A DNA stretch of 64,000 nt from Cohaesibacter sp. (GTDB lineage Bacteria; Pseudomonadota; Alphaproteobacteria; Rhizobiales; Cohaesibacteraceae): NCBI GenBank assembly GCA_025800145.1, contig JAOXSH010000004.1, positions 3,726 through 67,725 on the forward strand. Reading direction: 5' to 3'. The translations under genes were made by a program, and so were the position numbers. Below the pieces are notes generated by a model. It saw only the letters and a list, made by a program, of their open reading frames with translations, did no database searches and was not told the origin of the DNA. Of the stretch, positions 22,396 to 24,818 are shown piece by piece; the stretch's first letter is position 1, and the number at the start of each line of letters is the position of its first letter.

Positions 22396-22869
22396 TTATG
22401 GCTGATAGGGCAAGGATGAATGATGCAGCACAATGCGCAACACCCCGTCAGCATTCTTCTTATAGCCAAAACTCTTATCGACCTGTGTGATAGTGCCATC
22501 CTTATCGGTCAGCTTGATCCAGCCCATCCACATACCAACATCGCCCTCGATAAATTCAGCCGCAGTGATGCTTTCCATGGCACGCCATCCCTTGAGACCA
22601 AAACCGGAATCCAATGGATAAGCCTCATCATGGCCAACAAAATAGGACAAAGCCCCCGTGCGGGTTGGGCGGAAGGTCTGATCACCACTGGCCAGCGTCG
22701 GCTTAAACAGAACCGGACCAAGATCATAGCCATAAGCCGCATCCAGAACCTGTTCGGCAACCGGGCGCGCCGCTTCAATATCACCTTCTTCATAAGCCTT
22801 GGAGATGGCAATCAGACCATCACCCCAAGCCTTGCGTGCCGCACTCAGCTCATCGGTGGAAATCGACAT
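22396..22869 (-). CDS. Iota-class carbonic anhydrase homolog (COG4337-type)
   Basis: AYGY..GPVLFKPTLA, GALSYFVG, DSGF.L.GW, VDKSFGY, C-terminal HHSSLPY; no signal peptide. Confidence 0.75.
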   Translation of the reverse strand: MSISTDELSAARKAWGDGLIAISKAYEEGDIEAARPVAEQVLDAAYGYDLGPVLFKPTLASGDQTFRPTRTGALSYFVGHDEAYPLDSGFGLKGWRAMESITAAEFIEGDVGMWMGWIKLTDKDGTITQVDKSFGYKKNADGVLRIVLHHSSLPYQP

Positions 22870-23000
22870 GCTCTTGTCCCTTTCAGTTGGTCACTTTGCA
22901 ACAGCTTATTTAGGCGCAACTTAGCTGTGAATCAAGAAGAGCCGGTCAAAAACCAACCTCTTCAAAAGGGGAAGCTTTTGATAGAAAAGATGATCAAACA

Positions 23001-23034
23001 AAAAAACCGGCCCATTTCAAAAAGGCCGGTTTTT
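23001..23034 (-). terminator. Intrinsic terminator of asd
   Basis: AAAAAACCGGCC...GGCCGGTTTTT with A/T tracts on both sides. Confidence 0.75.
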
Positions 23035-23057: not shown

Positions 23058-24107
23058 TTAAGCAGCAACTTCGGCCCGTGGCTTGACCAGACCTTTATTG
23101 ATCAGGGTCTCGGCAATCTGCACGGTGTTCAGCGCAGCGCCTTTGCGCAAGTTATCAGAAACAACCCAGAGATTGAGGCCATTCTCAACGGTGGAATCTT
23201 CGCGGATACGAGAAATGTAAGTCGCATCTTCGCCAGCAGATTCAACAGGGGTGATATATCCCCCATCTTCGCGCTTGTCGACAACCAGACAACCCGGCGC
23301 TTCACGCAAAATATCACGCGCTTCATCAGCAGAGATCGGATTTTCAAATTCCAGATTCACCGCTTCAGAATGACCAACGAAAACAGGCACACGAACAGCA
23401 GTACAGCTCACCTTGATGGATGGATCGAGCATTTTCTTGGTCTCGGCAACAACTTTCCACTCTTCCTTGGTGGAACCGTCATCCATGAACACATCGATAT
23501 GCGGGATCACATTGAAAGCAATGCGCTTGGTGAATTTCTTCGGCTCGATCGGGTCAGACACAAAGACTGCCCGCGTCTGGGTGAACAACTCATCCATGGC
23601 TTCCTTGCCACCACCAGACACAGACTGATAGGTCGAAACAACAGCACGCTTGATCTTTGCTTTCTCATGCAATGGCTTTAAAGCCACCAAAAGCTGCGCG
23701 GTCGAGCAATTCGGGTTAGCGATAATATTGATGCGATCCTTTTTGGCAATCCACTCTTCCAAAGCCGCAGCATTGACCTCTGGCACAATCAAGGGAATGC
23801 GCTCGTCATAGCGCCATTGCGAGGAATTATCGATAACGATGCAGCCTTGCGCCGCAATCTTTGGAGACCATTCCTTGGACAAGGAGCCACCAGCCGACAT
23901 CAGGCAAAAGTCTGTGTCAGAAAAATCATAATGATCCAGAACCTGACATTTCAGCGTGGTGTCGCCAAAAGACACTTCCTTGCCTTTGGAACGCGAAGAG
24001 GCCAAAGCCACCACTTCATCTGCCGGAAAGCCGCGCTCGGACAGAATATCAAGCATCTCGCGCCCCACATTGCCAGTGGCACCGACGATTGCAATTTTAT
24101 AACCCAT
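23058..24107 (-). CDS. asd: Aspartate-semialdehyde dehydrogenase
   Basis: VGATGNVG, IDNSS, IANPNCST catalytic Cys, SDNLRKGAALN. Confidence 0.99.
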   Translation of the reverse strand: MGYKIAIVGATGNVGREMLDILSERGFPADEVVALASSRSKGKEVSFGDTTLKCQVLDHYDFSDTDFCLMSAGGSLSKEWSPKIAAQGCIVIDNSSQWRYDERIPLIVPEVNAAALEEWIAKKDRINIIANPNCSTAQLLVALKPLHEKAKIKRAVVSTYQSVSGGGKEAMDELFTQTRAVFVSDPIEPKKFTKRIAFNVIPHIDVFMDDGSTKEEWKVVAETKKMLDPSIKVSCTAVRVPVFVGHSEAVNLEFENPISADEARDILREAPGCLVVDKREDGGYITPVESAGEDATYISRIREDSTVENGLNLWVVSDNLRKGAALNTVQIAETLINKGLVKPRAEVAA

Positions 24108-24222
24108 AATAGATGATCTCCTGATCCCGGCTCCCCCAAAGTCTCCTGCCTTGCCAACATGGCACAGGCAGAATGGCTCCCCTCACATCCCCGGGGAGAG
24201 CCTGGCAGGGAGCGAGAGGCGC

Positions 24223-24273
24223 TTAAACCTTGGTAATAGTGGTAGTTGTGCGTTTGAGCAGGCCAGCAGTCAT
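24223..24273 (-). CDS. Putative Thr/Ile/Lys-rich attenuator leader peptide of asd (MTAGLLKRTTTTITKV)
   Basis: ATG ACT GCT GGC CTG CTC AAA CGC ACA ACT ACC ACT ATT ACC AAG GTT TAA; AGGGA 8 nt upstream of the ATG; ends 115 nt before the asd ATG. Confidence 0.75.
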   Translation of the reverse strand: MTAGLLKRTTTTITKV

Positions 24274-24512
24274 CACACCGGTCCCTGACGGAGCAGTGAT
24301 AAAATCTGCAAATATGACAAGGGAACCAATCATCCCAAACGCCCTTTTCAAACTCAGCCCGCTTCAAGGCGGACCCTCTCGGTTCAGATGTGCTTTTTGC
24401 CCAAGCCTTGCCCCCAAGTCAAGTAACAATCTGCCCGGCAATCCCCATTATACGAAAGAATGATACCAAAAAAGCAAAGACAGCAGAGCAAAAAGACGCT
24501 AAAAGACGTCTC

Positions 24513-24818
24513 ATGACCAAAGAGAGCAAACAAACACGCGAAGAACGAGAGGCTGCACGGCAAGCAGAAGCCATGCGCGCGCTTGAACGCGTGGAGCGTG
24601 AAAGTGAAACCATCGCCAATTCCAATTTTGCCCGCGCCAGCAACCGGCAAATCAATCATATGGAAGAAGCGCTGGATCGAACGCTCAAAAGGCTTGGGAC
24701 CGATGAAGATGGCAAATATGACCCGATAGAAGCTTGGGGGTCTGGCATTGGCCGCATAGGTGGTGCAATCTTTGCCATCATTCTTGTTATTTGGCTCATC
24801 AGCCATTTCACCAGATAA
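24513..24818 (+). CDS. Small protein with charged helical N-terminus and C-terminal membrane anchor
   Basis: MTKESKQTREERE...DPIEAWGSGIGRIGGAIFAIILVIWLISHFTR; divergent from asd. Confidence 0.65.
   Translation: MTKESKQTREEREAARQAEAMRALERVERESETIANSNFARASNRQINHMEEALDRTLKRLGTDEDGKYDPIEAWGSGIGRIGGAIFAIILVIWLISHFTR

Follow-up and report, generated by a model that had tools for sequence, protein, structure and literature searches.

The aspartate-semialdehyde dehydrogenase gene (asd) in the window, by which is meant the whole 64,000-nucleotide stretch of Cohaesibacter DNA analysed here, is very probably preceded by a genuine, conserved Thr/Lys leader open reading frame (ORF) that is tied to asd and forms the sensor part of a control device. 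By its anatomy the asd leader would work like a leader-peptide attenuator, and it lies outside both the thrL family and the terminator-based attenuators. New here are the extent of the family, which reaches across much of the Hyphomicrobiales, the nature of the conserved signal, which is Thr plus Lys, and the partner of the leader ORF, a terminator-less RNA switch of three co-varying helices. Judging from its anatomy, the leader probably lets the cell raise Asd when Thr or Lys runs short.

Asd catalyses the last reaction common to the lysine/diaminopimelate and the threonine/methionine/isoleucine branches, both of which start from aspartate semialdehyde; Lys is an end product of the one and Thr of the other. 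To our knowledge, asd regulation in Alphaproteobacteria is essentially undescribed, and, as far as we know, neither the lysine riboswitch nor the thrL system seen in other bacteria exists in this class. Through a leader that responds to both Thr and Lys codons, two end products would exert compact control over the branch-point enzyme. The element spans Rhizobiaceae, Phyllobacteriaceae-like genera, Stappiaceae, Kaistia, Beijerinckiaceae-like lineages and Boseaceae. Because it is widespread, absent from Rfam and devoid of a terminator, it offers a tractable model for terminator-less attenuation, with good genetics available in Sinorhizobium meliloti and Agrobacterium. The small ORF and the RNA motif are recognisable, and can now be used by annotation pipelines.

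A Thr/Lys-tailed leader ORF

The leader ORF encodes MTAGLLKRTTTTITKV, 16 codons of which six specify Thr and two Lys, and its stop lies 115 nt before the asd ATG, which is at 24107 on the minus strand (Table 1). On the minus strand the codons after the ATG (24273-24271) read ACT GCT GGC CTG CTC AAA CGC ACA ACT ACC ACT ATT ACC AAG GTT, and the TAA stop occupies 24225-24223. This reading bears out what an earlier note on the sequence had described: a 16-codon minus-strand ORF (24273-24223) with its own Shine-Dalgarno (SD)-like AGGGA, containing six Thr codons and the run T-T-T-T-I-T-K. A strain variant represented by RNA contigs carries AGGGG instead of AGGGA at the SD-like site.

Table 1. Features of the asd leader region in window coordinates
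Feature	Positions	Strand	Basis
asd, aspartate-semialdehyde dehydrogenase (349 aa), presumed regulated gene	23058..24107	-	PF01118 + PF02774; 82% identity to Roseibium Asd
asd Shine-Dalgarno AGGAG	24118..24122	-	read from sequence
R4, GGGGGAGCC, G/A-rich distal partner of R2, just upstream of asd SD	24129..24137	-	swap test, duplex energy, spacing
V, variable hairpin CUGCCUGUGCCAUGUUGGCAAGGCAG	24146..24171	-	-15.1 kcal/mol, z -3.6
R3, GGGGAUGUGAGGGGAGCC, G-rich; partner R1 or R2, not both	24175..24192	-	swap tests, shared nucleotides
R2, GGCUCUCCCC, most conserved motif, near-universal CUCYCCCCGG; partner R3 or R4	24193..24202	-	duplex energies, swap tests
R1, C/U-rich GCGCCUCUCGCUCCCUG, from the first nucleotide after the stop onward; partner R3	24206..24222	-	duplex energy, co-variation, geometry
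Leader ORF MTAGLLKRTTTTITKV with TAA stop	24223..24273	-	read from sequence; orthologous Thr/Lys-tailed ORFs in relatives; SEP5 translated
Sensor codons ACA ACT ACC ACT ATT ACC AAG (T T T T I T K)	24229..24249	-	run ends 2 codons before stop
SD-like AGGGA of leader ORF, 8 nt before its ATG	24282..24286	-	read from sequence
Possible -10 box TATAAT of asd leader transcript; -35 region weak	24447..24452	-	read from sequence; tentative

Taken alone, the Thr run is within chance for 64 kb. In the window a single stop-free stretch reaches five or more Thr in seven codons, and mononucleotide shuffles yield 1.8 per 64 kb over six frames; short ORFs that have a start codon and place such a run no more than four codons from the stop are expected 0.06 times per 64 kb. 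The leader ORF is considered real because it lies directly upstream of asd and is conserved across relatives, not on account of the Thr run alone.

Conservation was followed in a genome set of 80 loci for relatives of Asd (73-82% identity), most of them from Hyphomicrobiales. A Thr/Lys-rich small ORF ending ∼105-115 nt before the asd ATG is present in 60 of these 80 loci, and a Thr/Lys-tailed leader ORF occupies the same place in 45 of 74 metagenome loci, which form an independent set. The check suggested in the earlier note, a comparison of asd upstream regions from relatives, finds the Thr-run ORF conserved. The leader is found in Rhizobium, Agrobacterium, Ensifer, Neorhizobium, Aliihoeflea, Allomesorhizobium, Roseibium, Stappia, Pseudovibrio and Kaistia, as well as in Beijerinckiaceae-like metagenome-assembled genomes (MAGs), one Methylobacterium and a Boseaceae genome; among the genome loci it is absent from Amorphus, Ancylobacter, Pseudolabrys and others. 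The Beijerinckiaceae-like MAGs have a second leader type, with ∼11 codons between the Thr run and the stop and with a hairpin contained in the ORF.

The part of the peptide that is kept is its tail. The commonest form among the genome loci ends in KTKAKTTTKTV before the stop. After dereplication to 39 lineages, Thr makes up 41.6% of the tail codons, Lys 20.4%, Ile 1.5% and Met ∼1%. Thr is written with each of its four codons (ACC 95, ACG 98, ACA 22, ACT 13), and the other two reading frames over the tail contain no conserved peptide in these 39 lineages; this frame-specific conservation supports the predicted coding status of the ORF. The remainder of the peptide drifts: its length ranges from 12 to ∼40 aa, and the N-terminus and start position vary even between relatives that are 97% identical. 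In the closest relative (L081, 97% Asd identity) the leader reads MTAGAIAADMLKRTTTTTTKV, with ATT in place of the window's ATG, and at 86% identity (L082) the leader tail reads TLTPSTTTTKI. Both retain the Thr run, the Lys and the stop while the start codon shifts. Such a pattern is characteristic of a leader peptide in which selection maintains nothing but the placement of Thr and Lys codons, N-terminus, length and start being free to vary.

The same figures bear on what the leader may sense. The earlier note had proposed control by charged tRNA-Thr, possibly also by tRNA-Ile and tRNA-Lys. The conserved C-terminal Thr cluster is consistent with Thr as a sensed residue, and Lys, at 20% of tail codons, can be added with it. 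Ile has to be dropped: it accounts for 1.5% of tail codons, and the window's single Ile codon, ATT, is the Thr codon ACC in the 97%-identical relative.

One member of this family has been caught in translation. In S. meliloti 2011 the small protein SEP5 (SM2011_c04409 / SM2011_RS34175) is translated, as established by Ribo-seq and by western blot of a tagged version (Hadjeras et al. 2023, PMC10117765). SEP5 is MRPKGSSIAALNLPAHHAGPISHFSLARKTTAKTTTKTV, 39 aa, and overlaps the annotated SM2011_c04409; it was proposed as 'possibly a leader peptide', with conservation stated as Sinorhizobium only, in a paper that covers translation, without RNA structure or mechanism (PMC10117765). The gene downstream is named 'aspartate dehydrogenase' there and is asd (PMC10117765). 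SEP5 and the window ORF share their location in the asd 5' leader and a Thr/Lys tail immediately before the stop (KTTAKTTTKTV and TTTTITKV, respectively), whereas they differ in length (39 aa versus 16 aa) and have unrelated N-termini. The SEP5 tail is identical to tails of Rhizobiaceae loci in the genome set, and these loci share the downstream RNA element that a covariance model matches in the window. By tail, location and RNA element, the window ORF is an orthologue of SEP5 and belongs to the same family. The published limit to Sinorhizobium is corrected accordingly, as the leader spans many Hyphomicrobiales. Literature searches returned no characterised asd leader and no follow-up of SEP5 beyond the 2023 paper. 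The earlier note's point that no asd leader of this kind is known to be characterised in Hyphomicrobiales is roughly right, but a candidate, SEP5, had been published in 2023 (PMC10117765). The breadth of the family and the RNA anatomy of the SEP5-type asd leader appear to be undescribed so far.

Alternative helices between leader and asd

The same five pieces separate the leader stop from the asd SD in every lineage: R1, R2, R3, V and R4 (Table 1). R4 almost repeats the 3' half of R3, and the V hairpin is kept in relatives with a different sequence. In the window the R1:R3 duplex has an energy of -25.1 kcal/mol (-26.3 kcal/mol when folded as a hairpin), the R2:R4 duplex -19.8 kcal/mol and the R2:R3 duplex -17.4 kcal/mol, and the domain from R2 to R4 folds at -39.2 kcal/mol, better than 200 of 200 shuffles.

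Whether partners have changed together was assessed mainly with an alignment-free swap test, which compares native with cross-species duplex energies in the 39 lineages; it was relied on because alignments misplace the segments. In whole-leader MAFFT alignments R4 is off register by 1-2 columns, and RNAalifold run on them gives almost nothing; the covariance-model alignment is better for Rhizobiaceae and Phyllobacteriaceae rows, and misplaces the window's R2 and R4. In the swap test all three helices are stronger between native partners: R2:R4 at -17.8 versus -15.5 kcal/mol, R1:R3 at -19.3 versus -16.7 kcal/mol and R2:R3 at -18.4 versus -15.6 kcal/mol (p<=0.0002 in each case). The control pairings R1:SD (p=0.89) and R1:R4 (p=0.45) lack co-variation in the same lineages; both are stable, and a role of R1 as an anti-SD is neither supported nor excluded by this result. 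The invariant core of R2:R3, CCCCGG/CCGGGG, is uninformative for co-variation.

Compensatory R2:R4 pairs can be read directly from the sequences: UCCCCUCC/GGAGGGGA, CCCUCUCC/GGAGAGGG, CUCUCUCC/GGAGAGAG, UCUUCC/GGAAGA and CGAUCUCUCC/GGAGAGAUCG, compared with GGCUCUCCCC/GGGGGAGCC in the window. Formal pair counts point the same way. For R2:R4 together with V, 69.7% are paired against 58.7% in shuffles, with a co-variation score of 0.299 against 0.174 (slid control <=0.158); for R1:R3 the values are 72.9% against 65.4% and 0.259 against 0.186, with a one-column slid control at 0.221. None of 500 shuffles reaches the native score for either element. These counts are only moderate because the covariance-model alignment misregisters the window and distant lineages.

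The covariance model itself describes R2:R4 plus V and was built from 25 seeds, largely Rhizobiaceae and Phyllobacteriaceae loci, with the window among them. It matches upstream of asd in ∼55 of 80 genome loci and in 36 of 80 metagenome loci that the model had not seen. Over the 64 kb it gives a single match, at 24115-24234 on the minus strand (E=5e-7), which is partly by construction as the window is a seed; the match in the 97%-identical relative (E=5.8e-6) is independent of the seeds.

The helices compete for the same nucleotides. In all 39 lineages the competitors for R2 overlap by five or more of its nucleotides, and in 38 of 39 the competitors for R3 overlap by four or more: R1:R3 and R2:R3 have a mean of ∼7.6 R3 nucleotides in common (eight in the window), and R2:R3 and R2:R4 have ∼9-10 R2 nucleotides in common (nine of ten in the window). 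Because such helices cannot freely coexist, only two folds are considered. State A, predicted from these pairings, can form from R1:R3 together with R2:R4, and is pseudoknot-like since the two helices cross; state B can form as the local R2:R3 hairpin. The mutually exclusive helices are placed where the position of a ribosome could select between them, and the ribosome is presumed to make that selection.

Proposed mechanism and its rivals

The anatomy suggests the following sequence of events. When charged tRNA-Thr or tRNA-Lys is scarce, a ribosome would stall on the Thr/Lys run with its leading edge at about the stop codon; R1 would then remain free to take R3, and R2 would pair with R4 (state A). 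When supply is ample, the ribosome would reach the stop and cover R1, and R3 would pair with R2 (state B). A ribosome covers ∼12-15 nt 3' of the P site, as established for the trp attenuator. In 25 of 29 type I lineages the last Thr/Lys codon precedes the stop by two codons, and R1 pairing begins +1 to +5 nt past the stop in 39 of 39 lineages, so that a ribosome at the stop would cover R1. State A would be the 'on' state, which fits a feedback logic. We infer which ribosome position picks which fold, which fold is 'on' and which step is gated.

Among the steps that might be gated, initiation of asd translation is taken as the likeliest, given that R4 lies right against the asd SD and that each of the four segments resembles an SD or an anti-SD sequence. 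The distance from the 3' end of R4 to the asd ATG has a median of 18 nt over the 39 lineages and exceeds 35 nt in only four; extra hairpins intervene between R4 and the SD in four of the 39, and R4 adjoins the SD in the other 35. Rho-dependent polarity might follow as a secondary effect of blocked translation, and no intrinsic terminator would be involved. The full model, in which the Thr/Lys leader senses, the RNA switches and asd translation initiation responds, is put forward tentatively, as a nearly even prospect.

Folding calculations give this output a modest and uneven signal. Equilibrium folding of 60 loci with ribosome masks (three stall positions, at the stop, or absent) returns a mean SD accessibility of ∼0.48 throughout, with no consistent change. 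When the two states are forced, accessibility of the SD core is 0.57 in state A versus 0.51 in state B (p=0.17), and that of the wider SD region 0.565 versus 0.516 (p=0.003); in the window the values are 0.67 versus 0.60. Some lineages show a large rise in state A and the window next to none; overall the rise is weak and inconsistent.

The same sensor and RNA switch might instead gate Rho-dependent termination of transcription. Rho would then load on the sequence that runs from the Thr/Lys codons to the end of R2, which is rich in C and poor in G, and a stalled ribosome together with pairing of R1 and R2 would hide this site. Rho is a live alternative, or a secondary effect, because the stretch from the run through R2 is unusually rich in C and poor in G: 70 nt from the Thr/Lys run to R2 average 40% C and 21% G, and lie in the top 5% of C-minus-G skew for their own locus in 47 of 60 loci. 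The leader has no intrinsic terminator, and the modelling of SD occlusion is weak, both of which would suit this reading. However, C-richness follows from ACN codons and C/U-rich pairing arms and hence adds no independent support, both folds allow R1 and R2 to be paired, and the close spacing of R4 and SD in 35 of 39 lineages is left unexplained; Rho as the gated step is considered somewhat unlikely. Classical attenuation of the thrL/trpL type, in which translation of the leader picks either an antiterminator or a Rho-independent terminator hairpin, has in its favour the standard anatomy, regulatory codons in a leader peptide combined with alternative helices, and is the mode of the S. meliloti trp attenuator (PMC6614838). 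What it lacks is the terminator. There is no terminator-like site between leader and asd in the window, TTTT occurs even once between leader stop and asd ATG in only 5 of 60 loci, and the leader matches neither Thr_leader nor other Rfam leader families. The same organism places a textbook hairpin and U7 terminator after asd (-19.8 kcal/mol, z -4.4), which indicates that it uses canonical terminators. Attenuation at an intrinsic terminator was rejected on the consensus terminator scan of the window and the TTTT census (5/60 loci), and the classical scheme is regarded as highly improbable.

Two further readings were considered. The conserved fold could be mainly a metabolite- or protein-binding site in the manner of a riboswitch, the small ORF being minor or serving for coupling; in its favour, the structured element is conserved, measures ∼110 nt, and has pseudoknot potential and an invariant CUCYCCCCGG motif. 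This seems improbable, as the Thr/Lys bias is frame-specific, is kept across very different nucleotide sequences and stands at a fixed distance from R1; moreover, the alternative helices co-vary in a way that fits a ribosome-driven switch, and no known riboswitch family matches. Alternatively, the ORF could encode a trans-acting small protein, or be a chance ORF without a role in asd control. In S. meliloti a tagged form of SEP5 builds up as soluble protein (PMC10117765), and the Thr run within the window is not beyond chance, but conservation is limited to the Thr/Lys tail, with length, N-terminus and start varying even at 97% identity, and wherever the ORF occurs it precedes asd and keeps a constant spacing to the RNA element. 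It is very unlikely, on these grounds, that the ORF acts in trans or by accident.

The preferred reading remains the one in which the ribosome on the Thr/Lys leader acts on asd translation. Its broadest form holds that one leader peptide integrates Thr and Lys at Asd and that the ribosome toggles a pseudoknot against a hairpin to set asd translation initiation, without a terminator and throughout the Hyphomicrobiales. Stated so broadly it is possible, although the balance leans against it. If true, it would represent an amino-acid-sensing translational attenuator in Alphaproteobacteria, of which no characterised example was found in the literature.

Known leader systems and the setting of asd

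Like the window's leader, the enterobacterial thr operon leader, thrL, is a short Thr-run ORF upstream of an aspartate-family biosynthetic gene, with the presumed logic of charged-tRNA sensing through ribosome stalling. The systems part in what they read and control: thrL combines Thr and Ile codons with thrABC and a Rho-independent terminator, whereas the window combines Thr and Lys codons with asd and no terminator. A scan against Rfam of 23900-24700 (E<=10) finds neither Thr_leader (RF00506) nor the asd RNA motif (RF01732), only noise, and six related loci scanned at E<=1 contain no Thr_leader, no RF01732 and no known riboswitch family. The analogy to the enterobacterial thrABC leader drawn in the earlier note thus fails on a defining feature, since the asd leader has no intrinsic terminator, and it gains no match to Thr_leader.

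Conserved structured RNA upstream of asd is also known from Lactobacillales (RF01732), and this motif has no match here; we know of no leader peptide associated with it. Leaders in which the position of a ribosome on an upstream ORF remodels the RNA without an intrinsic terminator are represented by ermC and cat (stalled-ribosome translational attenuation), tnaC and mgtL/mgtP. A Rho-linked leader peptide, toiL, has been described as well (PMC12121999). With these five the asd leader would share the principle that ribosome position on a short ORF sets expression with no intrinsic terminator, but their stalls are caused by antibiotics, free Trp, Pro or Mg2+, whereas a stall in the asd leader would reflect shortage of charged tRNA-Thr or tRNA-Lys. 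With respect to an ermC-like logic, occlusion of the SD in the asd leader is not clearly seen in the folding models. In the same bacterial order as the window, the S. meliloti trpL (rnTrpL) attenuator senses Trp codons and ends transcription at an intrinsic terminator (PMC6614838). It resembles the asd leader as a leader-peptide attenuator of an amino-acid biosynthesis gene; its intrinsic terminator has no counterpart there.

On its far side, the ∼400-nt intergenic region that contains the asd leader is bordered by a divergent ORF of 101 aa (24513-24818, plus strand), for which there is no Pfam match. The TATAAT listed in Table 1 was not called by a promoter scan of the window. It would put the start of transcription near 24440, close to the end of one RNA contig, and this is only suggestive. 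The contig, from metatranscriptome run X6, is unstranded, spans 24183-24437 and ends 3-5 nt inside the start predicted from the TATAAT box. A second coral metatranscriptome contig spans 24207-24357; the leader region is thus present in RNA samples. As the RNA evidence consists of unstranded assembler contigs from coral metatranscriptomes, without strand or depth, it gives neither a start site nor an attenuation ratio. Contigs from Rhizobium freirei runs were left out, being of uncertain type and sharing ∼25-30% of words. The DNA of the window is also found in coral metagenomes.

Leader architectures among relatives of the Cohaesibacter asd locus

The Asd protein most similar to that of the window is encoded on a 323 kb metagenome contig (L081, ERZ794982.8-NODE-8), with 97% identity; the closest genome locus, among the matches listed, belongs to Roseibium and reaches only 82%. 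The source of the window appears to be a Stappiaceae relative living in association with corals, with its own species missing from the loci found in that scan. In low-GC lineages (loci L033, L042, L046 and L068), the RNA element between the leader stop and asd is compact: the leader stop lies 82-90 nt from the asd ATG, the variable hairpin V is absent, and segments R3 and R4 are separated by only ~9 nt, a spacing that would strain the simultaneous formation of R1:R3 and R2:R4 as a pseudoknot.

A second type of leader is found in Beijerinckiaceae/Roseiarcus-like lineages, exemplified by the peptide M..LKTTTKTRRPLKGGTNG*. Here, ~11 codons lie between the Thr run and the stop, and a conserved hairpin (e.g. 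CGUCGCCCGCUGAAAGGCGGGACG) is located within this stretch of the ORF, where it may provide one extra alternative pairing layer.

Features of the asd region and of second-type leaders
Feature	Position	Strand	Remarks
157-aa ORF	22396-22869	-	window; downstream of asd
Canonical intrinsic terminator	22996-23031	-	directly after asd; AAAAACCGGCC...GGCCGGUUUUUUU; -19.8 kcal/mol
Perfect TATAAT	24447-24452	-	window; weak -35 region
101-aa ORF	24513-24818	+	MTKESKQTREEREAARQ...; divergent from asd
Second-type leader region	about 60-10 nt before leader stop		loci L036, L039, L048, L055, L067, L073, L074, L079

Possible transcript start and strain variation

If the TATAAT hexamer marks a real promoter, the sequence places the start of the asd leader transcript ~165 nt upstream of the leader ATG. 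The contig from X6, a coral metatranscriptome run whose contigs carry no strand information, reaches 24437 and thereby stops a few nt short of this predicted start site. RNA-derived contigs from coral samples also reveal a strain variant at 24280-24282, a short distance 5' of the leader ATG. X6 reads AGGGGTT in place of AGGGACC, and the contig of run X7 has two of these three changes. Neither the leader ORF nor R1, R2 or the covered part of R3 is altered in the variant contigs.

Flanking ORFs and terminator

The terminator behind asd, missed by a simple scan because its loop exceeds 8 nt, is probably bidirectional. No Pfam family was matched by the 157-aa ORF beyond it, nor by the divergent 101-aa ORF, which shares an intergenic region of ~400 nt with the asd leader and encodes a product with a charged N-terminal part and a hydrophobic C-terminus.
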